Shown here: in pieces, positions 4,791 to 51,009 of the stretch
Layout of the letters: the number at the start of each line of letters is the position of its first letter
Position numbering within the stretch: position 1 is the first letter of the stretch
DNA from: Bispira polyomma
Lineage: Eukaryota
Assembly (NCBI GenBank): GCA_965649765.1
Contig: OZ287754.1
Location: 27,466,001 to 27,530,000 of the forward strand
Length of the DNA: 64,000 nucleotides
Reading direction: 5' to 3'
Position numbers and translations under genes: made by a program
The notes under the pieces: model-generated
Database searches by the model: none
The model's input: only the letters and a program-made list of their open reading frames with translations
What the model was told of the DNA's origin: nothing

Positions 4791-5656
4791 TTATTGGGTT
4801 TCTCAAAAATGTAGGATTTAATCCATGTAGTCCAGTAAGGATACCTGGTTTGTTGCCAAATCGCTGACAAATAAAGGTATACTGGCAGGGTGTACATCTT
4901 CTGCTGTCAGTTTAGACCTTACTATTGATACAATAAATATTGCGCCAAAGCTCCTCTTATTTGTCTGTTAAGTTGGTCACTATTTTGGAATATCAACTCA
5001 TTGGGCCCAGAAACTAATGTTTTAACACAATGTTTCCAGGGAAATGTAAAGTATTTGTTGTTTTACATTATATTCATAGATTAGTGATGGCATAACAAAA
5101 AGTTTGTAAATGTTGATATTGTGTGTAACAGTACCATGAACATCAATTCTCAGTTTGGTAGTTAGTGCTGGAGGGTTTATGTCTTAATCGTCAGAAACAA
5201 TGCCTCTTGCAATGTAGAAAATGTGTATCAGATAATTTTAAGTTAGATGCTGAATAAACTTTTGTATATTGGATGACAACTATAATGTCTATTGTAGAAT
5301 TTGGAAGCCTGAGACCACATTAGTTTTTTTCAATAATTGCATCTAGCTCAAGTACATTTGATATGAATGCTCTTGAGGTTTAGTTTATTTGGTATTGATT
5401 GCCTGTATGTTAAGTTTATTTTTTATTAATAGCCTTTATGTTCAGATTATTTGTGTTCTGAATTGCCTCTCTATTTCTGTTTCTATTTGTGTTCTGAATT
5501 GCCTCTCTGTTTCTATTGATTTCTGTTTCTGTTCTGAATTGCCTCTCTGTGGTTGTATTGTAAATATATTATGTCAAAATTTACAGAGAGCAATACATGT
5601 TCTCTGCACACTTACTAAAAGCTACAGACCGATAACACAAGTTCAGCTCATTCATC

Positions 5657-6802
5657 ATGATGAATGTTTTCATCCAAAAAATTAAAATTGTTAGTGCTAT
5701 GGTTCTTGCATTGACTGGAGTAGGCTTGTATTTTGATAGTCACATGATTTTATTACAGTCCTGGGAGGCTATGATACCCCAAGACAAGAGTGATCACATC
5801 ACAAGGACAAACTTGGCTATGAGTATGGAGTCTATCAACAAGACTGTACATATTGCAATGTTAGTAACTGGAGATAAGTATGTGCACTACAGCCTGATGA
5901 CAATGAAAGCTGTACTGTTTTCTACCAATTGGTTTGTTCAATATTACATTCTATCTGAAGATAATTCCACAGCAAAGCTAAACCAAGAGATCGCCTCCTG
6001 GCCAGCACATAGAAGGACTCAAGTGACTCTTGTACCAATAAAACTGAATTGTCCTGTGTTGTTACGGGAGACACTCTTCAGTGATCTACAAAGCAAAGCA
6101 GTGAAAATCTGTGCATACGAGACACTGGTATATTCACCACTTATTTCTAAAATAACACCCAAGGTGATCTTTATGGATACAGACATGATAGCTTTTGATG
6201 ACATCAGTGAGCTGTGGCGTGTCTTCCAGCAGTTTGACGAACAACATACCATGGCTACATCGATAGCTGTCATATACAAAGTACGAAAGAAGTATATAGA
6301 GGCTGAAGGGGAAATCATGCAGGATGGCCACGGCATGAATTCCGGTCTGATGCTCATGCACTTACAGAATCTGAGAGAAGCAGCATTCATAGATGTTCTG
6401 ATTGCAAGCAGCAACTTGCAGATAAGCGGTCTGAATCCAGTAGATGACCAAGATCTGCTGTGTCTGTATTTTCACCTCCGTCCTGAGCAGCACTACCCCT
6501 TGAACTGTGAGTGGAATTTCCTCCGACCAATGTTTCAATGTGAAGACAAGGCCCGTGTCAACTGTAGCAAGGCCGAGGTACATGGCATACGGATGTACCA
6601 TGCAACATCAGTTCTTAAGTTTAAAACAGGGCCATTTACTGAAATCTTTTCCTGTTTTGATAACATGAATTTTCATCAGCCGTCAAAATCAATGCAGTGC
6701 CTCAAAATTCATCTAATGAGATATAAGAACTGTAAATGTACCGTTGAAAATAATAACTTGCTAATAAAGCTTGAGAACATGCTTTCACTGAATCATCAGT
6801 GA
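5657..6802 (+). CDS. Glucoside xylosyltransferase-like (GXYLT-like) GT8 glycosyltransferase, single coding exon, paralogue 1
   Basis: Intact 381-aa ORF with an N-terminal hydrophobic anchor, DxD motif (FMDTD), W..F..F, G.NSG.MLM, DQDLL, C.WN and NC..AE..GI...H, all typical of GXYLT/GT8. Candidate acceptor gctacag ~30 nt upstream of the ATG and AATAAA at 6946, both conserved in the paralogue. Confidence 0.85.
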   Translation: MMNVFIQKIKIVSAMVLALTGVGLYFDSHMILLQSWEAMIPQDKSDHITRTNLAMSMESINKTVHIAMLVTGDKYVHYSLMTMKAVLFSTNWFVQYYILSEDNSTAKLNQEIASWPAHRRTQVTLVPIKLNCPVLLRETLFSDLQSKAVKICAYETLVYSPLISKITPKVIFMDTDMIAFDDISELWRVFQQFDEQHTMATSIAVIYKVRKKYIEAEGEIMQDGHGMNSGLMLMHLQNLREAAFIDVLIASSNLQISGLNPVDDQDLLCLYFHLRPEQHYPLNCEWNFLRPMFQCEDKARVNCSKAEVHGIRMYHATSVLKFKTGPFTEIFSCFDNMNFHQPSKSMQCLKIHLMRYKNCKCTVENNNLLIKLENMLSLNHQ

Positions 6803-8860: not shown

Positions 8861-9406
8861 ACAGTACCCAGCTCAGTGGCAAGTCCAGAAAGGTAAGTAA
8901 AGGTACCCTCAAGATATAAGACAATTTGAGGGATAAAAAAAAAATTTATTTACATGTTAGTAAAATATTACATTTACTAGTTTTTTAGAGTGACTACTTT
9001 TATATACAGTCTGTGGTCATCGTAAACTAACTAAGGTGAGCAGATTAAGTTTCTACTTCAATACGTTAAAGTTAAGGTCACCATTTGAGCAATCTTAACT
9101 AAGGTGACCTTAAGTTAAGGTGAGTTACAGTTTCTAGATTTTACATGTTTAAGTTAAGGTTACTAGCTTTACTAAGGTAACCTTAATTAAAGTTAAGCTT
9201 ACGTAAAACATATACATGCAATAAAAGAGTATAATTACAGAACGTATAATTGCAGTAAAACAAGATTAATTACAGATGAAAGATAAGATCAGAATGATCT
9301 GTTATTCTGATATAAACTGCATTATATATTTACCATACTGATTATTTGTGTAAATATACCTTTTTAACCAAATGTGATATTTACTGTTAGTGTATAAAAC
9401 CACCAA
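8861..9406 (-). repeat. Ngaro split direct repeat B2 (3' terminal)
   Basis: Near-identical to 10302-10850; two substitutions and a 3-nt indel seen. Confidence 0.95.
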
Positions 9407-10132
9407 TTAAAAACAACATATAAGGAAGATGTAAAAGTTTATACTAAAATACTAAGAAAATTTAAAATATTGATTTAATTACAGAAAAGACTGCATGCAC
9501 ATGCGGCACAGGAAGATCCCCTAGCTCAGCTGGAACAGTCCTGTGTGGCTGAACAATACGACCCCTTATGGCCTTAGTTACAGAAATCTCAGCAAACAAA
9601 CGATTGGGATCAGTGCACTATCAGCCCCTCTGTTGTAAACCTTAATATGAATATCAGCTGGGATGTACCAACACCAACGACCAACGTTCACAGGAGGTGA
9701 TGAAACCCCACGAAGATGACACACACTTGCACCCCAGCTAGTAGGATCAGTCATGATTGGTAAGGATGCACCCCAAATCTACTGGGTGATCCGATCGCTG
9801 CATGAGCGACGAGAAAGCTGGGCATTACTTGCCAGCAGCCATGAACACACTAGATTCATCCACACAACATCATACTCAATTGAGCATTTGATTTTGACAT
9901 TACACCCTTTAAGCACAAGCATAATATACGAGCCCCAGGGGGCGATTTGAGGAACAGAACCTGGGTTGGCAGTATTGTGCTGAAAGCCACGTCCCTTTTC
10001 ATCCTGCCTCTCTGAAACTACATATACTGAGTTAGAATGGGAATATACTTTTCATACATTAATATTTTTAAACCACCTATCTGGAACCTGCATAAAGCGA
10101 ACTTTAATAGAAAAGAGGGGTGGGAGGGTGGG

Positions 10133-10301
10133 AAATTCGATGTGCATTGCTGAATGTAAATATGAAAAAAAAATGGTGGAGTTTGGCGCCCAACTGTGGG
10201 GGCCAATTAGAGAAGAGGTTAACAGTTCATGGGAGGTACTAAAGAACAAAAGTGGGTGAGGCCGTGTACTGAGATCCTTGACACCCGCTGTGTCAAGGTA
10301 C
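10133..10301 (-). repeat. Ngaro split direct repeat A2 (internal)
   Basis: Near-identical to 15529-15704 and directly abuts B1. Confidence 0.95.
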
Positions 10302-10850
10302 ACAGTACCCAGCTCAGTGGCAAGTCCAGAAAGGTAAGTAAAGGTACCCTCAAGATATAAGACAATTTGAGGGATAAAAAAAAAATTTATTTACATGTTA
10401 GTAAAATATTACATTTACTAGTTTTTTAGAGTGACTACTTTTATATACAGTCTGTGGTCATCGTAAACTAACTAAGGTGAGCAGATTAAGTTTCTACTTC
10501 AATACGTTAAAGTTAAAGTCACCATTTGAGCAATCTTAACTAAGGTGACCTTAAGTTGAGGTGAGTTACAGTTTCTAGATTTTACATGCAATTTAAGTTA
10601 AGGTTACTAGCTTTACTAAGGTAACCTTAATTAAAGTTAAGCTTACGTAAAACATATACATGCAATAAAAGAGTATAATTACAGAACGTATAATTGCAGT
10701 AAAACAAGATTAATTACAGATGAAAGATAAGATCAGAATGATCTGTTATTCTGATATAAACTGCATTATATATTTACCATACTGATTATTTGTGTAAATA
10801 TACCTTTTTAACCAAATGTGATATTTACTGTTAGTGTATAAAACCACCAA
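10302..10850 (-). repeat. Ngaro split direct repeat B1 (internal)
   Basis: Near-identical to 8861-9406; begins 25 nt after the YR stop. Confidence 0.95.
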
Positions 10851-10875
10851 ACACCAAGGCAAAGTAGGGGTAGTC

Positions 10876-11858
10876 TCAAGGTTTGTGCAAAAGGGCTTTA
10901 AAAGCTAAGGCCACTTGCTGTCCTGCAGCTTGGTCTTGTACCAAGTATGAACGGACTGCATCCGACGTCCAGGTGCCGTGTTCTTTGATATGCTCCAACT
11001 CAACATTAGAATTGTAAGCCAAAGACGCACCTGAACGCCGGAAAGAATGAAACGTTAGGCCTGAACTACCAAGGCCCGCCAGATGGAGGACTATTCCCAG
11101 ATGACGCCTGATCTTGCTATCAGTGAGGGGAGTCCAGGCTTGACCCACTTTAACTTGAAATAAGGCTGCATTGGGACCCCCAGGGGAAAGCCTTAAAACA
11201 TTTCTCAGGGCAGTCACAGGGCACAAAGCAGAGGAGCCGAGGGAGGGAATCTTTATAAGTCTCACTGAGTTTCTAGACTGAATGGTCTTTGACCATTTGA
11301 TTAACAAGTGAATGCCCGGAGGCTTGAAAAATATATCACCTTTACATAAATGTCTTGATGGGTCAAACATTGAGGCAACATGGGGTGCCAGATTGGACAT
11401 GCGAAGAAAAGAAAAATAAGCTGTCAAGTACACAGCTTTATAGATTTGCCCCATGTTAGTACTATCACAAGTCAATACAAGCTGAAGTAACATATGCGAA
11501 TCCAAAACAGGTTTAATCTGAGCCACCAAGGGCCTATTATTGAGGGAGGCCTTGTTATACAGTTTAATGCGAGGTTCATCAAACATGGCAATCGACAGGC
11601 CATACATACTGAAACAGGCTTTAACAGCTGACACATGATTAATTACCATAGAGGCAGATGTTTGATTTTTTGTCAAAAATTCAAGAAAAGACAAGAAAAC
11701 CGGAACTGTTACCTTGGAGGTGGGACAACGCAGGAAACACAGGTAGGCCAAGAAGGATTTAAACATGGCCAGGTAATTTTTTGTAGTGTTAGGCCTGAAC
11801 GCTGTCTGCAGCCTAGCCAAGGCATCAGAAACCAGTACACCTGTAACTTGAGGAATTT
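10876..11858 (-). CDS. Tyrosine recombinase (YR) of the Ngaro element, reading frame intact
   Basis: Catalytic set R (FLRMSNL), K (KWSKT), HxxR (HSFRRSGA), H/W (HGTW), Y (AVRSY). The frame is open from just after the RH stop, and the first ATG lies inside the region shared with the relic YR. Confidence 0.93.
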
Positions 11859-11870
11859 CTGAAAGTACAG

Positions 11871-14301
11871 CTACAATGAGAAATCTACATATAAGTATTC
11901 TTCATTTACCGCTAGCCATATTGGATTGGGTATGTAACTTTTAAGCTGAGCATGGTTGGCTTTTCTGTCCTGCCATCTAGACAGCAGGTCAGCCACATTG
12001 TTTTTGACACCCAGTACATGAGCAACTTTAAGCTCAATATCATGAATAGCAGATAACATTAAGATGTTTCTTGCGCAGGCCTCGAGAAAAATGTCTTTTG
12101 TTCTTGCAGAATTGAGTACACTAACTACGGCTTGATTGTCACAGTATATCAAAACTTTTTTACCCGCCCATTGCTGGGCTCATATTCTGATTGCCACTAG
12201 AATGTTTAGCATTTCTAGCTGCACAATTGCCAGAGATAGAAAACCTATGGGAATAGTGCAGGCATAGACCAAGTTTCCCCAATGACCTCCCAGGCCTGTC
12301 AGACAGGCGTCTAGACTGATTGTTTCCTGTACAGATCTATGCGAGAAAAATGAGACCCCATTGTAAAAGGGGAGAAAATTTTGAAACCATTTAAGGTCTT
12401 TTTTAAACTCATCAGTTATTTTGATACTTCTACTGTTTTTGTTGTCCCTTAGCAATTGCAACATTCTGTTTAGGAAGCATCTAGCCACTCTGACATATTT
12501 TGCTACATACAGCAGACTGCCTAAGAGAGACTGTAATTGTCTTTTGGTACATGTTTCTTTCTCACCCCAAGTCATGTAATTATTCAGAACTTGCTGCATT
12601 TTTCCTTTAGGTATTGATATAGTGAATGTCTCAGTATTTATGTCTACCCCTAGACATGTGACCTGAGTGCTAGGGGGAATGAGTTTCTTACTACTGATTG
12701 TTAAACCTAGCTCCTGCAGGAGGTCATAGAGGGTATGATAGGACTTTTTAGCTGTAGTGGTTAGTCCAAAGCCTATGAAATCATCAATGTAATTGATAAC
12801 TGGGAAACCTAGCTCTTGCATCATGTATCTGACTGAGTCACTTAGCTTTTGAAAAATAGTGCTACCATGCTTGTACCCAAAAGGTAGGCAAGTGTCTAGA
12901 AATACTGATTCTCCCAGAAAAGACCCAACATGTGGATATCCCCCGGGTCCATTTTCACATGCCGAAAAGCTCTACTAATGTCTATCTTTTTAAGCTTAGA
13001 GCCTCGTCCCAATTTGACAACCTCATTTGTTATTAAATCAACAGAAGGAAAAGTAAGTATAAAAGGAGTACCCAAATATATTTCCGGACTCACATTTGAA
13101 TTGACAGCATGTTGACTCGGCCAGCTCAGGTCAATGATGACCCTGCGATTATCTGAGTTGGGTTTCTCCCTGGTCATGAAAGGGGATGAATGGAAGTTAC
13201 TTACTGGTTTTTTATCAAAAGGACCCATAATTGCTTCAAAATTCTCTTCTTCCTTTAAATAATGAGTGACATGCTTAGAGAATTCTGTGGCAGACTTGTG
13301 ATTTTCACCCGTGGCTACCATATTTGATTGATCTTTTACATCAAGAGGGAAACCACAGCGAATTAAACTCACTAATTGTTGGTTCCAGTAATTTTCCAGT
13401 CGTTTCTCCCATGCTTTCACATTTAGTTGAGAGGGAATACATAGATTCAAGTGTATGAAGTTATGTAAACCCGTATGTCTTATTTTGGTATTTGCTAACA
13501 AAGCATTACTTTCAACAACACTCACAGCTTTTGGATAACCGAGATTTAGATCCCCCAATGGAATATAACCAAATTTTGCCTTCATTTGTGAGTTCCAAGC
13601 CATGTGAGTGGTGTTGTCTTTTGCTATTTGTAGCTTACGTTTGTTGTTTTTGGAAGTACTGAGGCCCAATAGATACTTATCAGTCTCCCTGTCAAATTCT
13701 AGACCTTTATTACTTACATTGGGATCAGAATCTTCAATTGCTACAGCAATCTGACTATTCTGTGAGTTTTGTTTTTGTTTTTGTAGCATCCTGAATGGCC
13801 GGTTCTTCGTGCTCCTCACATGAGAGGGGAGCAAATTTGTTTCGACAAGTTATGTTGAAACACTCATCCGATTTTGTTATATGGCCAACATAGCCCTTGT
13901 GCAAATTTTGGTTGGTATCCTTTTTTGGGCCAGAACAATCACCCCGACGCTCAACAAGGTGTGAAAACTTTTTGATGCCCCCCTTAGTAGCTCCCCTCTG
14001 TGTTTGATTTATGTTTTTTACTGCCAAACGATTTTTTACACTTGTGAGAAAAACTATTCCTTTTGACAATATCACTGAAGAGGGGACTGTCGAAGGGGTC
14101 ATAAACATGCTGTGCCTTGTAACTACCACATGCAGTACTAATAGCAGCCCACTCTGAGCGCCAATTTACATTAAGACAATTGTTATTATATGAACTATTT
14201 ACAAAAACACGTGTATTAAAACATTTTTTAATCACATCCTGCTTACTGTTCTGCACTGCTGTACTGCAGTGCTTCACTAGTTTTTTGCCGATGCAGTACA
14301 C
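11871..14301 (-). pseudogene. Ngaro pol (RT + RNase H), disrupted
   Basis: RT motifs: GPF, RVIIDLSWP, KIDISRAFRH, LPFG, YIDD. RNase H motifs: DACLTGLGG, LEMLN, YCDN, HVLGVKNNVADLLSR. One-nt frameshift at ~12897, probable TGG>TGA at 12180-12182, and further frameshifts upstream of 13834. Confidence 0.92.
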
Positions 14302-15449
14302 TGGGCCATTCTGTGGCCAGCAGTTTTACCTTGTGCTAGACATTTCTGACAACAGTGTTTAAATAACACCCCCGCTGTGGTGTGATCTTTAGGATGGGAA
14401 CACGTGCCATCTTGAAAGTATTTGCAAATTGCAGATTTTGTTTTGTTGAAATTTTGACTGCCAACAGTGCCATTACTGGCACTATTGGAGTGGTTTGTGA
14501 TCCTTTGAGCAGTAGCTCTTCTGATACGGTCGATACGGTCAGTTTGGTTCCAGGCGACCTTGCCTTCCTCCATACGACATAGGAGCAAGGCATGGCTGGC
14601 TTTAGCAGAAGTCCACGAGAAGTCATTTGCATCCTCAAATAATTCTGACATATACTCCAACATGAAGTTTTTTGTGTCAGCATTTGACTCCTCGTGAATA
14701 ATCCAGCTGAAGCCAGCCACCCATTGGAATACATTCAGACTATCATATGACACACGTGACTTCCTAGAACCTGAGAGAATACTATTTTGAGGCCATGGAA
14801 CTCTTTGAGATTTTAAGTTACCTGTTTTTTCTTTCTCATTTAGCTGACGCAACTCTCTTAATCTGCTCTCTATTTCTACTTGGTATTGTGCTTTGACACT
14901 AGATAAAGAGGGAAGCTGACTATCAGGGTTATTGCTAGCACAGCAGCTTGTAGTACTTCTATTTTCGGAAGTACAGCCATTGTTTTGTGTAAGTGGCACA
15001 TTAGGGTTGTTGCTAGCACACATACTACTACTACTATCAGAACTACGGCCTTTGTTTACATTAACGTTAATGCCAGCACAGCAGCTTCTAGTACTAGTAC
15101 TTTCAGAACTATCGCCTATGTTTACATTAGAGTTATTGCCAGCACTTCTAGTACTAGTACCTTCGGAAGTACAGTGTTTGTGTACTTTTTTGTCAGCTTC
15201 AGTACTGGCAACCTTGCCTTCAATAGAACCTATACGAGAACCTAATTGCTAAAGTTCAGACAGTATTTGTAAATTAACCTCCCTTTGAGAGACCTCACTA
15301 GTACTTGTCCCAGCTGTAGCCTGAACATGTGGTCCTCCGTCTGTATCAGCCACATTCTCGGAATCAACTACCATATAAGGGCACTCCTCGTCGGCAGGCT
15401 TGCTGTGTTTCTGGTTACATGCAGTGCAGTACACCTTTCTCGGAGCCAT
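14277..15449 (-). pseudogene. Ngaro gag-like ORF1 (~390 codons, one in-frame TAG at 15249-15251)
   Basis: ORFs 15249-15449 and 14277-15023 share a frame. N-terminal CxxCxxxHxxPxxxxC motif; C-terminal CKYFQxGxC..H..HxCxxC...H...C zinc-finger region. Confidence 0.85.
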
Positions 15450-15528
15450 GTTTATACTTGGTTAATATATATGTACCTGTAGAGTACAAATAAACTAAGA
15501 TAGAACACTAAAAAACCAAGTAAAATTT

Positions 15529-15704
15529 AAATTCGATGTGCATTGCTGAATGTCAAATGTAAATATGAAAAAAAAATGGTGGAGTTTGGCGCCCAACTGT
15601 GGGGGCCAATTAGAGAAGAGGTTAACAGTTCATGGGAGGTACTAAAGAACAAAAGTGGGTGAGGCCATGTAGTGAGATCATTGACACCTGCTGTGTCAAG
15701 GTAC
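15529..15704 (-). repeat. Ngaro split direct repeat A1 (5' terminal)
   Basis: Near-identical to 10133-10301. Confidence 0.95.
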
Positions 15705-16313
15705 AAAAGCCCTATAACGATCATAGTATTGTGACATCACACAATTTGAAGTCTATAGAGAAACGTCATATTTGTAAACAAATCTTAAAAAGAAGCCTTT
15801 CTATTGTGACATAATACAGTATTAATCTAGCATGTATGAAGCAATTATATACGCTACACAACTTTAAAAAACGTGTTTGTTATTTTAAATGATTAACATT
15901 TTAAATAGGTTTCCTTATGTTATATAAACTAAGAATACAAAAGACTCTTTCTTTTACAAAATACTTCAGTATAACGTGGTTATCAGCGATCGTTTTTTAG
16001 AAACTAAAGGCTTGGTCCTTATTTATCTCAAAATCTTTATCCGGTTTATTGCAAAATATAATTCTAGAATTTGTCAAAATACAAACAATGGTTTGCAAAG
16101 AATTTATTTTGAGAGATTAAGTTGTTTTAAAAGACTAAGCTGTAAAATTTGTTTAAATCTGAATACGTTCAATGTAATCCATACATTGTGTTTATGTAAA
16201 GTTTAATTTTTATTTGTTAACTGTCTAAAATGTTTAAATGTACTTGTACTTTGTATTACCATGTATAATTTATGTGTTGAGTTCCTGTCATATAGTGTAC
16301 TTACTTTTTAATG

Positions 16314-16654: not shown

Positions 16655-18565
16655 TTTCCTAATATAGCTTTTATGTTGGAGCCATCCAACCCATTGGCCA
16701 ACGCAAAGATGCGTTTTTAAAAAGGTATAGTACTACCTTAACCAGCCAATGGGTATATACAGTAGTCCACCCTCCTGCCAAAAGGGTCACATGACCCCTT
16801 GTTTACCTCTTTATTTTTGTTGGCCACCAACAGTGAGGTCCATATTTCGAAGATATTTGGTTTTTGTAGGATTATTCTGTTTTTTTTCCTAAGTTTTCAA
16901 ACTTTTACAGTGACATCTTTAGATACTTCTGATGTGTCTTCTGATGCTCCCAAATTTCAAAAAATCATCATTTTGTGGGCGCATGATGTCGGGTTTTGAT
17001 AACCATAGATTTTGTTTCAAAAGTCCTGAATCTAGCAAGGGGGATGACCTTTGTTCACTGAAAAAAGACTTTGGTGCTTGTAACTCTTTAACTCCAGAAC
17101 AGAAAAAGAAGTTGCAAGCTGGACATAGATCAAAAAGAGGTAATTAAGTCCCTGAGAAAGATAAGTTTGATGATTCTATCTTGGACTTATACGATGAAGC
17201 TGTTATGATGAGGGACAAGTCTGTTTCAAGTGCTGACCTAAAAATTCAGCAATCCTTGGCATGCAGCAATTATCCCGCCCAAATGCTACACTCGCAAACC
17301 AGTATCGCAAGTTCCGAGTGCAGGAAGGGAAGTGCTAGTGCTTCTATTGCCAGTAATTCGAAACAGGGCACGGAAGATTTATCTTCCTCTACTACATCTA
17401 GCCATTACCGTCCTAGCTTGTCCAAGGGCAAGGCCATGGATGAAGTGAATCGACAAACCATACCCCCTAAAAGATGATGGTGAATCCGGGGTTTCTGATT
17501 ATATTGATCATCCTGTGCCTCATTATGCAGAGACTTTGTCAGCAGTTAAAAACTGGTTAGATATACAAATGTGGCTCCATCTGTGTTTTCTCAGAGATCT
17601 CAAATAAAAAAGACAGCTCAGGCTTCTCTGGCATTACCTCCAGCAGAGAATTTAGCTAAACTTTGGGATTTTAAGGAGTTTGAGGCTTCAGGAGTCCCCA
17701 AGGAGGGTGATATTGCTGCTACTAGAGGACAGAGAAAAATGCTTTGATTAGAGATCACTTCATTAAGTTTGATAGGCCTGCAATGAAGTGGTACCAGGTC
17801 TCTCCTCAACCACATGCTATTGTCGCTCCTACTGTCCAGGATGCTTTTAAGAACATTGCTACTTCACATTTTTATTTGCTCTCATCTTTTGCTACTCCTA
17901 AGAAACAGTATCATATGTGGGAAACTGTGACAAGAGAGAATCTAAACGTCTTAAATCACACTTACTGGTTTAACTCTGCAAACAGCAAAGCCACTTCCGA
18001 AAAATTACTGAAGTTCAACAGGACTCTATTCAATGGTCTCATGTGACTAGAGACTCCTCTTCATCAGCTCACATACAGAAGAGAGATTCATCTTATAAAC
18101 AGTCAGACAATGCTTAAGATGCTAGAGGTCAGGGTAGAGGGTCTTTTCGTCCCTATAAAGGTTACTCAGGCTTCTCAGACTCAGCACTTAGAGGCAAAGT
18201 TTTCTTTCCTTCAACCAGAGCTTCCTTTAGAGGTTCAAGCGACAGTAGAAGGAAGTGACAACCAATATCCAGGAGGCCGTTTGTCCACATTTTGGCAGGT
18301 GTGGCAGGATATGAATGCTCATCCAGGTGGAAACAAAGCTTCATATAAACATTTTGGAATTAAAGGCAGTGTTTCAAGCTCTAAAAGCTTTTTAAAGCCA
18401 GATTCTAAATCAAAACATATTGATTTCCACTGACAACTCCACTGTAATATCATACCTCAACAAACAGGGAGGAACACTTCATGGAAATGTGTGTTCTTGT
18501 TTGGAGGATTCTGGCATTGACGAATGCCAGGGGCATCCACTTCAGAGCAAGACACATTCCAGAAA
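16655..18565 (+). mobile_element. Internally deleted, degenerate DIRS1-like retrotransposon (gag, pol start, RNase H)
   Basis: The gag N-terminus reads CGRMMSGFDNHRFC..GDDLC..C..LTPEQ. The pol start GGRLSTFWQVW is joined directly to RNase H motifs HINILELKAV, TDNSTVISYLNKQGGT and ARHIP, so RT is deleted. Confidence 0.75.
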
Positions 18566-21310: not shown

Positions 21311-21944
21311 CATTTCCGTAGCCATGTCATAAAATCGACATTGTATATATCAAGATACATGTGCAACATTAACTGAGAGAGTACGAATTAATGATTATAA
21401 TGGTTGACTTTATTTTATCTACATGCAAATAAATATACGCCAAGTACAAGCCTAAGTACACGTGTACTTCAATGTAAGCTTTTCCTCCGTTGTTCATAGT
21501 ATTGATTTTTGGATACATGAGCCACGTTTGACTGAAAGGAAATATACTTCTCTTATTTAATCTGAAAGAAAGATAAGCATCTCTCACTGTTCGTCTGGTC
21601 CATATTAAAAAAAAGTTAAGTAGAATCTATCAAAGCTATACACATGTCTCGCTGGTTAACTTTCTAAATAAGTCACGTGACCAGCTAATGATAGGTTTCA
21701 GTGGAAAGCACTCTTAAGTATTAACTTCCATATAAAGACATTTAGTTGTCTTCGATTTTCGACTAGGCAACCACTGTGTGTTACATTTGATATAATGATT
21801 ATAATAAAATTCAATATTTACTTAAATGTACACATATTTGCTTGAATAAGTATATTATATGGATGCATAGTTTACCAAATAGGTTAGCATTCTCCAAAGT
21901 GTTGTTTTTTATGTGAAATATTGCTATAATTTTTTAGGATCCAA

Positions 21945-23099
21945 CTTACCCTGAAAATGTTTCTGTGTAGCCTAAGTGAGCGTTTCCATGCAGGCAACTT
22001 TCTGAGGCGACCAGCCGACGTATAGCAGGCAATTTTCAATTTTTATGTTTCTATACAATTATTTGAGAAAATAGATACCTGCATTTAAACCTGAATATCT
22101 CAGCCATTTCTCAACTGATTTTGATGCAACAAAAAGCACAATATACCCGATAACATAAGCTTTCTCACCATATTTTCAGAAAATTTATACCTTCAGTATT
22201 TTTTGAGTTATTTAAATAAAACGGCAATGTTTACAAGGCGACGGGCAATGCCAGGCGATTTTTTTCGCTCCTAGTACCGAAAAAATCGCCTGGCATTGCC
22301 TGTCGCCTATTGGCGTTGCTCACATGGAAACACTTGGTTATAAATCAATGAAACTGATAGAATCGCCGTCGGCCGTCGCCTGATCGCCTCAGAAAGTTGC
22401 CTGCATGGAAACGCTCACTAAATCGTATAAAGCCAGCCTCTGGTTGACCTTCCCTTGAATGAGTGCTGACTGTCTGAGAACATCAGTGGTAGGTACAATG
22501 GACTCATGCATGTCATGTGGTTCTGCTGTTTGTGCAGCACTGTTTGGAAGAGTTTGAAGTGTGTGCGCTTGTCTTTTAGCCAGTCCTTCTGGCGAGGTAG
22601 CACCTAGCGTTGGCTGTAGCGGATTCAACCTCTGTGTTGTGGTAGCCCTTGACATCATGTAGAGTTGGTGTTCTGATAGCTGAGTATTTCTCTTGTATCT
22701 GGGTGCAAAGACAGGATGCGTCCTTAGTCCATCTGCTGTGTTAGCAAGGAAACCGTGGTTGACTGGTGAGCTGTTAAGTGACAGGTGAGATTGACTACTA
22801 ATGCTGTCAGGTTTCCTAATGTCTGACTTGTCTTTTTCTAGCTTCATCACAGTTTTAAGTAACGACTCCATCATTACTTGTTGTCGTTCAAAGAGGTCTT
22901 TATATATGTCACCACTACTCACGCCCTTTTGCATTGAAGTTGTCGACTCTGTGTCCGTATTGAGCTATGAGTCGGTCAAAGTTACCTCTGGTAGAGTAGC
23001 TGCTTGTCTTGTGCATCTTACACCCACAGGTCGGCTATGTGATATGCAGCATCTGGAACATGCTGCTGTATCAGGAACTTTCTTCTTACCTCTCACCAT
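21945..23099 (-). pseudogene. gag relic of a second Ngaro-like family
   Basis: MVRGKKK..CSRCCISHSRPVGVRC carries the same CxxCxxxHxxPxxxxC motif. Also IVPTTDVLRQS..VNQRL. One stop codon and a MITE insertion. Confidence 0.7.
21976..22418. mobile_element. PIF/Harbinger MITE with TAA target duplication, inserted in a gag relic
   Basis: Perfect 35-bp TIR gtgagcgtttccatgcaggcaactttctgaggcga, taa on both sides, and a long internal hairpin at 22237-22308. Confidence 0.9.
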
Positions 23100-23441: not shown

Positions 23442-23970
23442 TTGTTCAGTATTAGTAATTGTTTAAGGGTATTGTTTGCGAATTGTCAAGGTTTGAAAAT
23501 AATGGAAAAGAGACGCAAAGTATTGTCATATTTTAAAGATAAAAATATCAACATCTTATGTTCGCAAGACACACATTTTGGTATTAAAGTATTATTAGGA
23601 GGAACTTGCTTTGTGTATGGTGTTAAAACAAACTCTGGAGGAGTAGCCATAGTCTTTAAAGAAAATTTTGAATATTATGTACTTCAAGGACACAGAAGGT
23701 AATTATTTACACTTGCTGGTTAAGATAAGTAAAATGACAATCAATTTGATAACAGTTTATGGTCCTAATAATGATAGTGCAACATTCTTCACTGAAATAC
23801 AAAGTATGTTGACAAATAACGCAGCTCATACCATCATTTGCGGAGATTTTAACTTAGTTTTAGATCCCAAAAGGATACCCAAAATTATAAACATATAAAT
23901 AATCCAAAAGCCTGTAGATTTGTCCTAGATATGATACAACAGTGTGGTTTAATCAATGTCTATAGACCCT
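23442..23970 (+). mobile_element. L1/Tx1-like LINE APE endonuclease fragment
   Basis: ANCQGL, ILCSQDTH, GVAIVF, TVYGPNND, IICGDFNLVLDP, with frameshifts. Confidence 0.8.
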
Positions 23971-24029
23971 GATAGTCAACGGAAATTCAGAATCCAGATA
24001 ATATTTTTTTTTGTGAATTGAAGAGTTAA

Positions 24030-24950
24030 CCGATTTACCATGGGGAAAGCTGAGATCTATAATTACTCCCCTGTGGGTTGCCCCAGACTTTTTTTCTGGT
24101 CATAAATAGGGATATGTGAAGATTCTTCTTTGAAAGGGCCCAAGATGGCACCAAACTGTTTTTCTTCTTTCAAGTAAGCTTTAACGTCATTCTCACATGC
24201 ACAAACTGAATAATGATAGGGCATTTTCATTTTGTTGGAGCACATTAGTTTGGTCAAAATCTAGGGGAAATACATATCGAATGAGATATGATAATTAATT
24301 CTAACATGACACTGCTGTGTCTGCGATTCTGATTGGCCGACAGCCTCGGTAAAAATAACCGTATACCCATAGAGGGAAAAAAGACTAATTTCGTCCCTAA
24401 CATACTGGATGCCATGTGAATATAGTTCCTTCAATAACGCAATTATGCAGTAAAAAAAGCTAGAAGCAGGAAATAATTTTAATTTGTCATATTAGAATAG
24501 GAATAATGCATTCCAAAACATGATATGCAGTAATTTTTATCACTCTTGGAGCACAGAAATACTATGCCTCCAATTGTAGTAAAAATTACTGTATACCGTG
24601 CCTTGTCATGGGTTGTTCCTATAATATCCAAATAATTGTTCAGTAGTGAGTCTCACTTCTCATGCTTGAGTTTGATTGAACCCGCAATTGTTTCAACATA
24701 AATTAATGTTTTTGCTTTGTATAATTTCTTCATGTAATTGCAGGATGGAAAGTTTCTGGGTAATCGCTTTGACGTGTTCTGGAATTTTTAATTCCCCAGT
24801 GGGATAAATCTGAACTTACCATTGCTTTCGTTTATTCCATTTTTGAAATACATATACTGAATTACACATGCTTTTTCCACTATGTCCTTGGGTCGAACTT
24901 TGACACACAGTTCTAAATCATATTTGTCTTTAGTATTACCTTGTATAGGA
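24030..24950 (-). pseudogene. Ngaro-like pol N-terminal/RT relic, interrupted by an insertion at ~24295-24600
   Basis: KFRFIPLG (compare KFGYIPLG), DVKAYLKEEKQFGAILGPF and DLSFPHG. Confidence 0.65.
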
Positions 24951-27295
24951 GATTAGTCGAGAATCAGGTGTTTCTTTAAAATTTATTATCCGAGCTGAAG
25001 ACTTAAACTGCTGAAAGCTAAGGTGACAGTAACAAATTGTATTTTTGAGTATTGTTTAAAGTCCTTTCGAATTTCTAAATACACATACACCCATTATAAA
25101 TATAAACAAAGGTAAGGCGATACAATTTTATGTTAACATAATTTTATATCATAATTTTGATGAAAAAATGTAAAAAATATTTAAACGTTACTGAATATAA
25201 TCTTCCAATGTAAACTTGAACTGACTAATATATTAAACAAGATCATTCAATAATGTGGCCCAGAAAGGGAACAAGACATTCTTTAAAAAGAAACATCTGT
25301 TTTAAACAATATGTATCACACAAACAAGAGTTTATTTACTATGAATGCCATTGATTCTTTCAAGTTGATACCTGTGTTTAGTATATGGTGGGGTAAAACT
25401 ATTCACGTCACTTTGATCCCCCAAGGGTGTGAACCTGTTGTGCGTGATAATAGTAAAACTACTACCCGAGTGGTGTACATTAACCAAATATATGACGAAA
25501 GAAGATAAACAGTACAATACGGGCCTGGTTGGGCGAGTGTTTTATATTTATTAACCACTTATATAATTATTATGTTTTTTTTAGATCAAAATCTAACACA
25601 AAACAGTCAGAAAGAGCACTAAAATAATGAAAATTCACGGTAAAGTATATATTACAACCAAAAGGTATTGACTGGTCACTTCAGAGAATGAGCTTGAAAT
25701 ACAAACCTCTAGAACACTAAAAAAAATCGAGTTTTGTGTGCAATGTCATCGCATAATGCTTATTTTTCATACAATACAGAAGTTTGAAACATTTTATAGA
25801 TTAGTTTGTTTAGTATGACAATATTAAAACACCCCATAACTCTATATGCCGGTAGTTTATGTTTCAAAACCTTTCATTATGACGTCCCATTGCAAATCTT
25901 AAAGCCAAGAAGTACACAGTTGGTGCCATAAATAATTACCTTAAAATTCGTAGGGAGCATGAAATGAACTGGTTTGACTACATTTTTCACCTCTAACCTG
26001 TGCAGGGTTGCTGTTAGGGATGCCCCGTTTCTTTTTTTGGTCAGCATAGGTTCTGTTGTTAATCTTGCTCAATTAACCACTCCAATTGTGGGTGGCTCAC
26101 ATTCATGTGAACAACTTGACTATGCAAAAAGGTTATTGTGTATATTAGAAATGGCCTGTGGGTGACCATAATCTTTTTTATATCATTTGACTAACTTTAC
26201 TGCAGTCCATTGCTGCATATTGGTTGGATCTATGTAACTCTAGTCACATAGCACATATATGCGTGTATGAAGTACCCCCGGGTTTCATGGTCCCCATTTC
26301 TGAGGACACGTACCCTTTTTTTAAAAAAAACTGACACAGGGTACCTTTCTCATGATTTGATTTTTTTGTTTTAGTCAAACAGTTGCTTGACTTTTGAAAT
26401 TTCCCCCAATCCACTTTTGGGCATGTGTCCTTCTCATCCTATCAATTTTTGTGGTTTCCCCCATGTGACTTTGGCCTCCTCCATCCTACAGAGGAGAACT
26501 GTGTAAAGTGCAGAGTCCCAAGTAAAATCATGGCTGTGTTCCATCATCTCGGGCCTAAAACTCAACCATTTGATTCCTGGTTTCCATGTCTTTGTCTTCT
26601 CTTATGATACTGCCAAAGCCTGAGACTCACTGGGCCATGGAATGGCCACCACACAGCATTCTATTTGTTGATTGTCCACCTAGGATAAAGTTCTGCTACC
26701 ACATGACTTGCTTCTTAAGCCAGACAGTCTCCCTACCCTTTGTGATTTAAATTTAACTGTTTCGTTCAGGTCCTGCAGCTCCTACAGCCAAAAGTCCACT
26801 GCTGACTATAACTGGACTGTCTAAGTATCTGAAGGGATGGCATATGACATCATCAGTGCCACGTAACTATCTTGTCTGCTGCTCATTTACTCTGCTAGTA
26901 GGAAACTTGGCTGCTAGTGGCAGGTTGACTCATTGCCCCACAGCTTACATAATTGTCTTTCCGCAGTAGACACATTGGTGGCACACTTTTCACCCACGGT
27001 GTAACTGATAACTGACTGTACAAAGTACAACCTGTCATCAAGTATAACATGTCATCCCACTGCCTTCAATTATTGTAGGATACGTAAGATGATCTCAGCT
27101 GGTGAGACTTAACTCGCCTCATCCGATACAACACTGTTCAACGAATTTACATTTGTTCATTTATGGGCTTCTTATGACTCGCTATTGATCTAGATAAAAT
27201 AGTAAAACTAACCTAGTGGTGTACATTAAAAAAGTAATTGACGAAAGAAGATAATCAGTACAATACAAGGCCGGTAGGGTTTCGGTGAGTCATAT

Positions 27296-29183: not shown

Positions 29184-30420
29184 CTAGGGAGTAGTAGATG
29201 TGGGGGAAAAAGCTTTCTTCAAAGCCAAAACTACCTGAGGACTTGTTTCTGGGTTTTCCATTATGTAACGCCCAACTTGTTGAAGGCGCCCGAATCCGAA
29301 TGATGGAATGCATGGAAAAAAAGATATCCTTAGGGAGACCAGAAAGTGTTTGTACAGTTTTCTGGTGAGCACATACTCTGCCTTCAGTGACTATTTCAAT
29401 TTCAACCTACATCTGACTTCAGCATAAACAGGAGGACAATGGCCGCATAGCGCAGAGAGAAGAGAACAGTTCAAGTAACTGGACCAATTTGACTAAATCG
29501 TGATTTTACATTGTTTTAGACCATTTATGAGTATGTGAGACCCTTGTGGGTGAAATAAAATGTCCTGTCTAGAAAGATGTCTACAAAGATCAAACAATTT
29601 GCTGGATTGGGGGACAAGATTGGACAATCTCAGGAAAGAAAAAAAATAGACTACCAGACAAAATGGATTTGAAAATTTGCCACATGAAAGTGTAATCACA
29701 TAAGTTGAATAATTTAAGGAGGATATCAATATAAATGAAAGCCCTTAACTTTTTAACCAGTGGTATGTTGATGAAGATTGATTTGCGAAACAGTCTTACC
29801 CTTGGCCAGTGACGGCTGATAGTGTCACTCCATACACAGTGAGGAAGGACTTAATAGCTGTCAAGTTATTGGTCATTACTGAGGGAGAAGCTTTGTTATA
29901 GGTAAGTGACTCTAGATATGCTAAAATGTGGGATGCTTGCATAGATAAAAGGTCTGCCTGAATAAAGCCAGAGAATGCAATGAAGTTTCTGAAAAAGCTT
30001 TAAAAAGCTCTATTAGTTGATGGTTGGAATGCTGACAGCAACCTGCGGACAGCTCCAGAGGCAAGCAGCTTACCCACAGGTGTACCTATAACTACATATC
30101 CCAATTTAAATGTAAAAGTTCTTTATAAAGTGGAACCCAAGCTGGGTTGGAAATATTACTATGTAACTGCTGATATTGGCGGGCAGTACCCTGCTAAGGT
30201 GATCACAAATCAGCTGTGTAGTTGAGTTTCCCTAGTATGTGAACCAATTTAGCATCAGTCGTATGCACGACCATTTCCATGGCAATGTTCTAGCACAGGT
30301 GGCTAAATAAGTGTCTCTTGTTTTGCCTGTGGACTGAAAAATGACCACAACCTGATTGTCAAATCTAATAAGAATTTTGTGGTCCTTCCAGAAATTATCG
30401 CATAGACATAAAGCCACAAA
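29184..30420 (-). pseudogene. Degenerate RNase H + tyrosine recombinase of another Ngaro-like element
   Basis: ILIRFDNQVVV..GKTRDTYLATCAR (RH); RRLLSAFQPST, FFSFLRLSNLVP..FD..RHLSRQDI, and C-terminal RYI..QVVLALKKAF (YR). Confidence 0.8.
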
Positions 30421-30874
30421 TATGTTCAGTGAAGAAGATAGCAGTTAATGTTCATGTGCCCATCCACAAAACAGATAATGGTGGTATATATAATCAGAAC
30501 ACGAGAAGACAACCAACAACCACACACTGGTTAACACGAAGATAGAAGTCGACCCAAAGCTCCATCAAATTTGGTTGCAATAACTTGCAGACAGTCCTCC
30601 CAATTGGGCAATTAAAAATGTAGTGTAATTAAACCAGCCGTTGTGGATAATGCGCATGTGAGTTACACAGAATATAATAAACTTTAATTTTGTTACATAT
30701 CAAAGAACCAAGTCTATGAAATTCTATTCTGTAAATACCTGTATATTTTTTATAGAACTTAATACCTGTCAGATATGGACAGCTGAGCAATGCATTCTCA
30801 TTACAGATGTTAAATTATTCTTTAAACAAATTATGTCTTGAGGATATTGGAGTATTATATCTACATAATGTTAA

Positions 30875-33610: not shown

Positions 33611-34417
33611 AGCCAAAGCTTATTTGGCTTTGCTCAAAGATGTGGGATTTGAATCATGTAGTAGTCCAGTAAGGGTGACTGGTTTGTTGCCACATCGCTG
33701 ACAAAGAAAGGTATACTGGCAGGGTGTACATCTTCTGCTGTCAGTTTAGATGTTACTATTGATACTATAAATATCGCCGCAAAGCTCCTCTTATTTGTCT
33801 GTTAAGTTTGTGACTATTGGACTATGAACTCACTGGGCCCAGGAACTGAGGTTTAACACAATGTTTTCAGGAAACTTCTATTATAAAGTATTTGTCCTTT
33901 TACATTATATTTGTAGTTTGTAGTTTATAAATCTTGACATTTTATGTAACATCAATTCTCAGTTTGGTAGCTACTGCTAGAGGGTTTATGTCTTAATTCT
34001 CAGAAAGAATTCCCCTTGCAGTGTGGAGAATGTGTATCAGATAATTTTAAATTAGATGCTGTAGAAATTCTTGTATATTGAGTGACAGCTGCAGTGTCTA
34101 TTGTAGCATTTTGATTGGTTTGTTTCTGTCAATAATTGCATCTAGCTTAAGTATATTTGATTTGAATGCCCTATAGGTTTAGTATATTTAGCATTGATGG
34201 CCTGTATGTTAAGTTTATTTTTTATTAATAGCCTTTATGTTCAGATTATTTGTGTCCTGAATTGCCTCTCTATTTCTGTTTCTATTTGTGTTCTGAATTG
34301 CCTCTCTGTTTCTTTTAATTGTGGTTGTATTGTAAATATATTATATCAATATTTATAGAGAACAATACATGTTCTCTGCACACTTACTTTAAAGCTACAG
34401 CCCGATAACACAAGTTC

Positions 34418-35563
34418 ATGATGAATGCTTTAATCCGAAACATTAAAAGTATTAGTGCAATAGTTCTTGCATTGACTGGAGTAGGCTTGTATTTTGACAG
34501 CCACATGATTTTATTAGAGTCTTCGAAGGCGATGATATCAAAAGACAAGAGTGATGAAATTACAAGGACAAACTTGGCTATGAGTATGGAGTCTATCAAC
34601 AAGACTGTACATATTGCAATGTTAGTAACTGGAGATAAGTATGTGCACTACAGCCTGATGACAATGAAAGCTGTGTTGTTTTCCACTAAATGGTTTGTTC
34701 AATATTACATTCTGTCTGAAGATAATTCCACAGCAAAACTAAACCAAGAGATCGCCACCTGGCCAGCACATAGAAGGACTCAAGTGACTCTTGTGCCAAT
34801 CCAACTGAATTGTCCTGTGTTGTTACGGGAGACACTCTTCAGTCATCTACAAAGCAAAGCGGTGAAAATCTGTGCATATGAGACACTGGTATATTCACCA
34901 CTTATTTCCAAAATAACACTCAAGGTGATCTTCATGGATACAGACATGATGGCTTTTGATGACATCAGTGAGCTGTGGCATGTTTTCCAGCAGTTTGACG
35001 AACAACATACTATGGCTACGTCAATAGCTTTCATGTACAAAGTACAAAAGAGGTATACAGAGGCTAAAGGGGAAATCATGCAGGATGGCCACGGCATGAA
35101 TTCTGGTCTAATGCTCATGCACTTACAGCATCTGAGAGAAATGGCATTCATAGATGTTCTGATTGAGAGCAGCAACTTGCAGATGAGCGGTCTAAATCCG
35201 GTTGATGACCAAGATCTGCTGTGTCTGTATTTTCACCTTCGTCCTGAGCAGCACTACCCCTTGAACTGTGAGTGGAATTTCCTCCGACCAATGTTTCAAT
35301 GTGAAGACAAGGCCCGTGTCAACTGTAGCAAGGCCGAGGTACATGGCATACGGATGTACCATGCAACATCAGTTCATAAGTTTGAAACAGGGCCATTCAC
35401 TGAAATCTTTTCCTGTTTTGATAACATGAATTTTCATCAGCTGTCTAAATCAATGCAGTGCCTCGAAGTACATCTAATGAGATTTAAGAATTGTAAGTGT
35501 ACTGTGGGGAATAATAACTTGCTAATAAAGCTTGAAAACACACTTTCACTGAATCATCAGTGA
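34418..35563 (+). CDS. GXYLT-like GT8 glycosyltransferase, single coding exon, paralogue 2
   Basis: Intact 381-aa ORF with 38 substitutions versus paralogue 1 (hand count, ~90% identity). All GT8 motifs retained; AATAAA at 35698. Confidence 0.85.
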   Translation: MMNALIRNIKSISAIVLALTGVGLYFDSHMILLESSKAMISKDKSDEITRTNLAMSMESINKTVHIAMLVTGDKYVHYSLMTMKAVLFSTKWFVQYYILSEDNSTAKLNQEIATWPAHRRTQVTLVPIQLNCPVLLRETLFSHLQSKAVKICAYETLVYSPLISKITLKVIFMDTDMMAFDDISELWHVFQQFDEQHTMATSIAFMYKVQKRYTEAKGEIMQDGHGMNSGLMLMHLQHLREMAFIDVLIESSNLQMSGLNPVDDQDLLCLYFHLRPEQHYPLNCEWNFLRPMFQCEDKARVNCSKAEVHGIRMYHATSVHKFETGPFTEIFSCFDNMNFHQLSKSMQCLEVHLMRFKNCKCTVGNNNLLIKLENTLSLNHQ

Positions 35564-37084: not shown

Positions 37085-37540
37085 TTGTTGACCATGAGGA
37101 TGTTTCGGACAATACCTAGAGAAATGGACAATACTGACATTTCAAATGCTGTTGTTAATCTACGTATATTCCAAGAACTAAAACAATTGAGTAGACTTAT
37201 GTCTGTAATGGAAGAGCGAGTTAAACGATCGGAGCAGAAGGCTGTAGCCACCTCCCCTCGGGAGATTTTTGTGCAATTATCCTCTCCTGGGACTACTGCG
37301 ACAGAGGCAGCCATTAGCAGCACTGACGATACCTTAGTTCCCTCACTGAGTACCTTGAAGTCATCCCAAAGGCTACAATGGGCAGTTGACTCCAGATTGA
37401 AGAATTTGGTGGACATGAATGAATCAGGTAACCATAGGTCTCAGAGAGACAGTCCTGATACTGGTTGGGCTAAGCAACAAGTCGCCTGGCCTCAAAACCA
37501 TATTCTTGGTGAGACGAAAGTAATGTTGAAGTAAAAATTT
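37085..37540 (+). pseudogene. gag relic of a third Ngaro-like family
   Basis: VNLRIFQELKQLS (compare VNLQILSEL*QLG), LVPSLSTLK, VDSRL..L, GNHRSQR, VAWPQNHILG. Confidence 0.75.
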
Positions 37541-43200: not shown

Positions 43201-43613
43201 AAGTCTCTTCACACTGGGTTTCCAACTTATTTTGCCCCATATCTTTCCTGTTACAGTAGTTCCTATAATACCAGACGTAGTCAGAGTGCTAGTAATTTCC
43301 TTGTAGTTCCAAAGTACCACCCATCTACTCAAAAGTCAGTTAAATAGTTTGGTCACAGCTTTGCTTTTGATGCTCCCATTGTTTGGAATGCTCTTCCTGA
43401 GGTGATTCGTTCTTCCCCTTCACTAGCCTCTTTTAGAAAGCAGCTTAAAACCCACTTGTACACCAAAGCATACCCACCTTAGTCTCAATCATCCATATGG
43501 TGCTCGATTCTTTTCTGTCCTTGATATTGGAAATTGGATTATTGTCTTTGTGCTGTTGCGCCTTAGGGGAGATTAAAGGGAGATTAAGCGCTATAAAATC
43601 TAATTACAATTAC
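40228..43613 (+). mobile_element. L2-clade LINE ORF2 (APE + RT), frameshifted, with 3' UTR and (attaca)n tail
   Basis: LNARS, VTETH, CGDFNIH, GHILDLI, SDH, QSAYK..HSTETAL, LDLSAA, GVPQGSVLGPLLF, YADDTQ, SRLDYCNSL, LHWLPV. Confidence 0.93.
41795..42054 (+). mobile_element. Full-length tRNA-derived SINE with 10-bp TSD, inserted in L2 ORF2
   Basis: A box tggcctagtgg, B box gttcgaatcc, (aattca)n tail, TSD tactgaggga at 41785-41794 and 42055-42064. Removing it restores NCSLTEG|HVPDGFKTAVVTPLIKK. Confidence 0.95.
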
Positions 43614-45715: not shown

Positions 45716-46322
45716 CTTGGCTTTAGTAAAGTTTGAATCACCCTCTACTTGGATTATCTTAGGTATTACCGGTTGTATAAGTTGTTGCAGTGCAAGGACG
45801 AGATGTTTGACGAACCTCCTTATAAAATCATTTATTGCTTTTCCGTGGGGACAAAACAAAATGTAAAAAAATTTAAACATAGATTTTTTGCAAGGGATGC
45901 CAACACCCAAAAAGGTCAAGGAAATATTTGACGGTCGTCACCACTTGATCTGTCTAGATGATTTGCAACAGGAAGTAGCCAATAGTAAAGAGGCTGAGAA
46001 ATTATATACCCAACTCATTCACCACAATAACCTCAGTGCAATTTATCTAAATCAGAATTTATACTATCAAGGCAAATTTGCCCGTACACTCAACCTAAAC
46101 ACAGCTTACAGCATTCTATTAAAAAATCCTAGAAATACCAAACATATAGCTCTGTTGGGACGTCAGTTGGGAATGGGAAAAGTCTTAAAAGAGGCTTATC
46201 GGGATGCCACGAGTAAACCGTACGGCTACCTGATTGTTGACATATCGCCCAAAAGCGATAAAAGCTAAAAGTTAAGAACTAATATTTTTCCCCATGAAGA
46301 CCCGTCGCTAGTATATCAATAA
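45716..46322 (+). pseudogene. Polinton packaging ATPase (A32-like)
   Basis: Walker B LICLDDL, HHNNLSAIYLNQNLY, TLNLN, KNPRN, LGRQ, AY.DATSKPYGYL. The Walker A GKT is missing after PSTWIILGIT, apparently through a small deletion. Confidence 0.88.
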
Positions 46323-46363
46323 GTGTTCTAAGCTCCCTCCGTTAGTCTCAACTACTGGTAGCT

Positions 46364-46980: not shown

Positions 46981-46992
46981 AAAGGATTCGTA

Positions 46993-50290: not shown

Positions 50291-50309
50291 AATTTTCGGA
50301 CGTTCTGAT

Positions 50310-50960: not shown

Positions 50961-51009
50961 ATTCTCTGTTTTGCTTTGTTGTTCAAGGCGAGGCAACGGT
51001 TTTTTTAAC

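Follow-up and report, generated by a model that had tools for sequence, protein, structure and literature searches.

Conserved, phase-matched splice signals predict a spliced Gag-recombinase fusion in Ngaro-type retrotransposons

RESULTS

Organization of the element

The 64,000-nucleotide stretch of Bispira polyomma DNA analyzed here (contig OZ287754.1 of assembly GCA_965649765.1, positions 27,466,001 to 27,530,000; called the window below) carries on its minus strand, at 8861 to 15705, a retrotransposon whose tyrosine recombinase (YR) frame has no ATG of its own. Splice signals in the element and its relatives predict that the 5′ half of gag is joined to YR by removal of an intron containing the rest of gag and all of pol, which encodes a reverse transcriptase (RT) along with RNase H. 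The features of the element are as follows.

15529 to 15705, minus strand: split direct repeat A1, the 5′ end (177 aligned columns, 93.8% to A2)
14277 to 15449, minus strand: gag (start codon ATG at 15449; codon 67 is a premature stop; Gag profile match 1.8e-116)
14822 to 15449, minus strand: coding part of predicted exon 1 (209 codons and one base; zinc motif, long helix, linker and helix, a layout taken from a homologue model)
14816 to 14824, minus strand: predicted phase-1 donor CAG/GTAACT at an invariant Gly (intron begins at 14821)
14280 to 14286, minus strand: slippery heptamer A AAA AAC at the gag stop, with a stem-loop a few bases downstream
11871 to 14279, minus strand: pol (RT, RNase H), with frameshifts and stops in this copy (stop codon TAG at 11873 to 11871)
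11859 to 14821, minus strand: predicted intron of 2963 nt, with the gag 3′ half and the whole of pol
11859 to 11880, minus strand: acceptor region (candidate branch point, then the TAG that ends pol, a short run of pyrimidines and CAG; exon from 11858)
11841 to 11843, minus strand: alternative acceptor CAG, in frame (exon from 11840, which falls 6 codons short of the position that close homologues match)
10876 to 11858, minus strand: YR exon (327 open codons past the join, without its own ATG)
10302 to 10850, minus strand: split direct repeat B1 (549 columns, 99.1% to B2)
10133 to 10302, minus strand: split direct repeat A2, from the repeat alignment
9407 to 10132, minus strand: A2-B2 spacer of 726 nt (two short frames of no known family)
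8861 to 9406, minus strand: split direct repeat B2, the 3′ end, from the repeat alignment

Judged by its sequence, the element is of the Ngaro type, as this group of the DIRS order is defined in the available parts of PMC8547959, PMC4157794, PMC3783388 and PMC9210276. Its genes follow the Ngaro order (gag, RT/RNase H, YR), and its repeats and open reading frames (ORFs) are arranged as A1-ORFs-B1-A2-B2, with the 726-nt spacer separating A2 from B2. All of the catalytic YR motifs (R, K, H-x-x-R, Y) are present. Because pol stops 40 codons past the AD.LSR motif of RNase H, there is no room for a methyltransferase; a DIRS1-like or PAT identity was rejected, as neither this domain nor inverted terminal repeats of the DIRS1 type occur in the element. 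The pieces scanned, which cover the broken 5′ part of pol only partly, gave no Pfam match to an aspartic protease or a DDE integrase.

This copy is disabled by the stop in gag and by the frameshifts and stops in pol. At three of these breaks the window departs from the DNA contigs of three public runs, and the three therefore look specific to this copy. A joint from 14822 to 11858 is not among the 15 joints listed for these runs, with 28 more beyond the list; as the runs behave as DNA, this has no bearing on expression. About 11 codons directly after the donor (14801 to 14804, minus strand) are missing in this copy and are carried by the DNA contigs and by homologues. The A2-B2 spacer holds short frames at 9779 to 10051 and 9578 to 9778 (minus strand), separated by one stop, and an acceptor-like gtagtttcAG in phase 1 at 10012. 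Neither frame matched a Pfam family or an Atlas cluster; the spacer is possibly a decayed fourth gene.

Splice signals in the window and its relics

Spliceosomal GT-AG introns start at a MAG/GTR donor and end with a pyrimidine tract and a NYAG acceptor (slashes mark the splice junctions). An earlier note on this DNA had proposed that such an intron connects gag with YR, and its particulars for the main element proved correct. The donor ACAG/GTAACT, with the intron from 14821, lies after 628 coding bases and is in phase 1; the acceptors ctgtactttcAG/aa (exon from 11858) and gttacAG/gt (exon from 11840) both preserve the YR frame; the intron, put at about 2.96 kb, measures 2963 nt; and no in-frame ATG occurs in the open stretch of 36 codons that precedes the AFRP motif of YR. 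The pol stop TAG (11873 to 11871) doubles as a third in-frame AG, and a candidate branch point read from the window sequence only, CTCAT with its A at 11877, precedes the acceptor by 19 nt. Joining 209 Gag codons to 327 YR codons would yield a fusion of 536 residues. The donor is the best one in gag, yet it scores only 4.9 bits, and taken alone the splice sites of the window are not far above chance.

An acceptor-like tttatttgtactctacAG occurs at 15477 to 15500 (minus strand), 27 nt before the gag ATG, with no clear conservation in relatives. A conserved acceptor in the 5′ untranslated region was rejected, with scores of 8 to 15 that did not exceed those of controls.

Decayed YR retroelements cluster between 18 and 38 kb of the window. 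They include the following relics.

37130 to 37689, plus strand: gag relic with a phase-1 donor at 37428
29410 to 30435, minus strand: RNase H and YR relic with a phase-1 AG (exon from 30085)
26184 to 27126, minus strand: third gag relic, absent from the earlier note (Gly codon GTT near 26757, no donor)
21944 to 23081, minus strand: gag 5′ relic into which 443 bp have inserted (site resembling a donor at 21949, in phase 2; the gag 3′ half is missing behind it)

A donor shared by two gag relics had been claimed. At 37428 it is indeed found in phase 1 at the homologous Gly, with 3.2 bits, but the third relic has GTT at that codon. At 21949 a donor-like site exists but reads in phase 2 as it stands, and the insertion separates it from the 5′ part of gag. 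The acceptor reported at 30085 in the YR relic is in phase 1, 20 codons before AFQP, although a phase-2 site there scores one point higher. The insertion itself (21976 to 22418, 443 bp) has 46-nt inverted ends and a TTA duplication, resembling a miniature inverted-repeat transposable element. Additional pol-like relics lie at 23968 to 24297 (minus strand) and 18047 to 18464 (plus strand).

Codon constraint at the donor in Gag homologues

Of 184 Gag homologues, 120 were listed, which together with the window gave 121 alignment rows. The donor column holds Gly in 111 rows and a gap in the other 10, of which 7 begin downstream, 1 is deleted and 2 are offset by one column. The residue after Gly (n = 111) is Thr in 56, Lys in 29, Met in 13, Asn in 7 and Ile in 2 rows, and Ser, Arg, Tyr and Ala in one row each. 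An A-initial codon is thus possible in 109 of the 111, and because residues as unlike as Thr, Lys, Met, Asn and Ile share only that first base, the constraint appears to act on the nucleotide sequence. The check suggested in the earlier note, that GGT always be followed by AA, was too narrow, as the homologues keep G-GT-A. The residue before Gly (Thr 47, Ser 22, Ala 16, Lys 13, Gln 9, Pro 2, Arg 2) is compatible with an N[CA]A codon, likewise in 109/111. After thinning to less than 80% identity, both rules held in 53 of 53 sequences; in this thinned set a single first base was kept in only 1 of 155 variable columns, and the N[CA]A rule was obeyed in two other columns. On a tree built from the columns downstream of the donor, a minimum of 19 changes fall on the residue after Gly, and two of them lead out of the A class. 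The residues around the donor Gly can be read at the codon level as spelling MAG/GTA.

These data bear on the possibility that YR begins at an internal ATG and that the splice-like signals reflect chance or protein constraint. Many YR frames do receive a Met in prokaryote-style gene calls, and the donor Gly terminates a helix in a structural model, which makes structural conservation conceivable. However, a first base A shared by chemically unlike residues points to the nucleotide level, the best donor of two loci (L024 and L027) falls in a Ser codon instead of Gly, and the starts of YR proteins are scattered, with 93 of 247 beginning past a conserved F. We regard this explanation as extremely improbable.

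Phase of acceptors and donors in distant families

Scans that kept the best 80 of 211 metagenome matches gave 83 loci in all (L001 to L083), with about 27 to 42% YR identity. Twelve were dropped for lack of the YR start or the upstream DNA, and with the window element and the YR relic 73 sequences were scored, using rules and weights for acceptors and donors that were our own or followed the general consensus. The best acceptor before YR, chosen blind to frame, is in phase 1 in 61/73 sequences and in 33 of 39 clusters formed at 60% identity; among the exceptions, at least 4 represent the same acceptor site behind an indel. When each cluster was represented by one locus, the tested interval was in phase 1 in 31.5/38, compared with 6/35 to 21.5/35 in nine control intervals. 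Stops in the YR frame occur within 15 codons upstream of the acceptor in 19 of 34 clusters and downstream of it in 1 of 34.

The best donor of gag is in phase 1 in 19 of 21 clusters (28 gag frames), with a mean of 6.0 bits. Control donors are in phase 1 in 17/33 YR and 11/19 pol sequences, with a mean of 3.2 bits (Fisher p 0.003), in a comparison where gag frames exceed the controls in length and any open frame disfavors phase 2. Paired blindly, the best donor and the best acceptor are in phase in 20 of 22 loci, leaving at least 300 open codons in 17 of the 22. GT-AG donor and acceptor consensus sequences with matching phases are thus found in the window and its relatives. No gag fused directly to YR was seen among the 83 loci, and no relatives were found in viral contigs. 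Three of the loci (L081, L082 and L083) lie inside a bacterial metagenome-assembled genome, probably owing to contamination by the host animal; they are Ngaro-like elements, complete or nearly so, that carry spliceosomal signals.

Expression of pol and the published frameshift model

The slippery heptamer at the gag stop suggests that a -1 frameshift likely gives rise to Gag-Pol in the window family. A readthrough or slippery signal followed by a long open pol frame ends 23 of the 28 gag frames: TGA with at least 200 in-frame open codons in 17, and A AAA AAC with an open -1 frame in 7 (six of them long; 98 codons in the window). In addition, KN forms the C terminus of 91 of 120 Gag homologues. 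The recoding signals also show that no third acceptor is required for Pol in these elements.

Recoding has also been proposed for YR, which would then be reached from pol by programmed ribosomal frameshift or readthrough. The proposal of Poulter and Butler (2015) stands in print as quoted in the accessible part of PMC13003380, according to which the YR frame, at -1, overlaps that of pol and is probably expressed by frameshift; PMC3783388, in its available part, describes YR as in frame or shifted across all fungal Ngaro groups. The window agrees with it in that its YR frame lies at -1 and shares 28 nt with pol, and the single pol-YR frames of L057 and P0101 likewise speak for a route through pol. 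The two frames were compared in 21 clusters that have a best acceptor in phase 1 and a pol end that could be located, if only roughly in some decayed copies. The YR frame relative to pol is +1 in 11 clusters, 0 in 6 and -1 in only 4, so that the -1 overlap of the window is not conserved. A slippery heptamer is present at the pol/YR boundary in 1 of 21, within a 599-nt overlap, whereas clear recoding signals in the same elements sit at gag/pol. As 11 of the 21 families show no overlap between pol and YR, a frameshift fails as a general route to YR; it also leaves the codon constraint at the donor and the phase-1 acceptor unexplained. We consider this route very unlikely.

Gene models that join Gag to YR

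A YR profile search yielded 35,021 matches, the best 150 of which were listed. Among 247 YR proteins, 15 have more than 60 residues before the YR core: seven NCBI models with a Gag-like N-terminal part, from Branchiostoma, Glandiceps and Ptychodera, four with pol, and four run-on frames. In amphioxus, the N-terminal parts of models P0316 and P0324 are gag, common to P0331 and P0322, respectively, up to the Gly. There P0331 and P0322 continue into the Gag C-half (GKRKLLSG and GKTKIVSG), while P0316 and P0324 turn to Ala and YR; Ala, with its G-initial codon, fits the requirement of a phase-1 join. The P0316 join is found again in 4 cluster mates. P0376 and P0323 read through the genomic acceptor (FTG and IAG) where P0343 and P0377 join, and Ptychodera isoforms X1 and X3 combine two different gag joins with a single YR start. 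To our knowledge, NCBI names isoforms only when transcript evidence exists. The Gag likeness of the remaining fusion models is weak (iE 0.001 to 0.014) or undetected by the Gag profile. A search of longer YR proteins yielded one pol-YR frame and no Gag fusion, and the 10 near clusters contain no named members.

Since several gene models join pol to the YR start, the acceptor might be real and have another partner, either the donor of a short intron at the end of pol, giving a Pol-YR fusion, or that of a non-coding leader exon. However, a phase-1 donor of at least 4 bits after the RNase H motif is absent in 21/21 clusters, and the best donors of the RNase H region have a mean of 1.1 bits and are spread evenly over the phases. 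A non-coding leader would require an ATG past the acceptor and no fixed phase, and in 15 of 21 clusters the stretch before the YR core lacks an in-frame ATG. Either partner seems highly improbable to us.

The N-terminal half of Gag

In the predicted structure of a Gag homologue (P0102, pLDDT 75), the donor Gly comes right after a helix at residues 122 to 140. The modeled N-half has a long helix, and the C-half comprises a helical domain and a zinc-finger-like end. The zinc-binding N-half of the earlier note did not generalize, as the motif is limited to 28 of 120 homologues and 44 have another start; the constant parts of the N-half are therefore the helices rather than the zinc finger. Fold searches with the Gag models gave no clear match, which speaks neither for nor against a capsid-like fold.

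The Gag N-half, whose end at the cut coincides with a domain boundary, may carry YR into the Gag assembly that holds RNA and complementary DNA (cDNA), a role to which we give an even chance. If the splice is real, the N-half might instead supply only a start codon, dose control or a nuclear signal. The variable length of the N-halves (about 70 to 310 residues, with only some 72 retained in Ptychodera isoform X3), the restricted occurrence of the zinc motif and the many N-halves rich in Arg and Lys would suit such a function. In contrast, the cut retains the long helix as well as the one directly preceding the donor, which exceeds what a start codon would require, and 6 of 8 fusion models share a similar P-[ST]-L-x-x-[LI]-R helix. 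This second role is quite conceivable, at somewhat less than even odds.

Other features of the window

5636 to 6802 and 34409 to 35563, plus strand: two similar single-frame glycosyltransferase family 8 genes, within a duplication spaced by about 29 kb
40228 to 43347, plus strand: endonuclease/RT-like relic, from its motifs a putative LINE
45867 to 54610: frames presumably of a Maverick/Polinton, labeled from motifs resembling its ATPase and polymerase

DISCUSSION

The core of the earlier note, in which the gag 5′ half is spliced to an acceptor directly behind pol, draws support from four lines of evidence in relatives: the codon constraint at the Gag donor, the phase-1 acceptors, the in-phase pairing of blindly chosen sites, and the NCBI models. 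The sites, their phases and conservation, the missing ATG of YR and the matching gene models are established. Sequence comparisons further lead us to infer, with a probability of about 0.86, that the gag-to-YR splice occurs in cells.

A number of observations weigh against this conclusion. The acceptor of the window is weak, scoring 10 on our scale against control means of 11.0 to 13.3, the third gag relic (26184 to 27126) has no donor, and the relic at 21949 requires an assumed indel. The Gag homologue data are protein sequences, in which the Gly codon itself is invisible, and the homologues from ENA may stem from few host genomes. Two control intervals within YR are strongly phase-biased (21.5/35 in phase 1 and 27/35 in phase 2), and conserved motifs inside YR can therefore also skew phase. 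The donor position drifts among distant families, 14 of 21 lying 170 to 235 residues from the gag end. L057 and P0101 hold pol and YR in a single frame, and in the models P0279, P0322, P0328, P0331 and P0374 the same YR start is preceded by pol instead of gag. NCBI models are predicted, with RNA support that is not visible, and no RNA read or transcript contig across the gag-YR junction was seen. L057 keeps a phase-1 acceptor despite its single pol-YR frame, which may reflect a mutation or a true variant.

Splicing of gag to YR would allow one Ngaro-type element to make three proteins from two RNAs. The unspliced RNA would encode Gag and serve as the template for copying, and recoding at the gag stop would produce Gag-Pol, by a -1 frameshift in the window family and by UGA readthrough in others. 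In part of the RNA, the host spliceosome would join the phase-1 donor in mid-gag to the phase-1 acceptor at the pol/YR boundary, and this spliced RNA would direct synthesis of a Gag(N-half)-YR fusion of about 480 to 640 residues. We tentatively suggest, at a shade below even odds, that this is the general and ancient integrase route of animal Ngaro elements, and that the Gag half tags the recombinase for assembly and so brings it into the particle, a task that falls to the Gag-Pol-integrase polyprotein in LTR elements.

The element is of a known kind, and its widely conserved expression route is apparently undescribed. A full-text literature search, whose scope excluded the founding papers, Repbase and bioRxiv supplements, found no report of a spliced Gag-YR in the accessible parts of PMC9341512, PMC4157794, PMC7192593, PMC3783388, PMC6681497 and PMC8547959, nor in those of PMC13003380 with its supplement, PMC9210276, PMC2632668, PMC5890265, PMC3266345 and PMC9940879. 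The printed answer for the start-less Ngaro recombinase has so far been a supposed frameshift only. A phase-locked, conserved intron replaces it with a testable junction, on which existing RNA data from amphioxus, acorn worm and other animals can decide. If splicing is the general route, YR frames regarded as "start-less", in their hundreds, and many host gene models labeled "uncharacterized" would be Gag-YR fusions. The splice would also mean that Ngaro retroelements have to balance spliced and unspliced RNA as retroviruses do, and the real recombinase would have a Gag-derived N terminus, truncated in current annotations and relevant to biochemistry.

The element resembles described Ngaro elements in the order of gag, RT/RNase H and YR, in its A1-ORFs-B1-A2-B2 repeats and in the absence of a methyltransferase. 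It differs from them in its 726-nt spacer between A2 and B2 and in a predicted splice to the Gag N-half, whereas the route to YR in print is a frameshift. A similar arrangement exists in murine leukemia virus, in which, according to the available part of PMC10496198, a gag donor is spliced to an acceptor close to the pol end in the SD′ RNA, placing the N-terminal part of Gag in frame with integrase sequence (P50/P60), and P50 is packaged in virions. P50 is accessory and contains the last 116 residues of a DDE integrase, whereas here the whole recombinase would be fused, with no other evident route to it. The resemblance to SD′/P50 is a functional analogy and not homology; packaging by co-assembly is plausible, and P50 offers an analogue. 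Retroviral env and foamy-virus pol are also expressed from spliced subgenomic RNAs. Such an RNA is reported for Ty1/Copia (PMC5580714). These systems are alike in that unspliced genomic RNA is kept and splicing sets the protein ratios; their splices yield Gag alone, Env or Pol, in contrast to the Gag-recombinase fusion predicted here.

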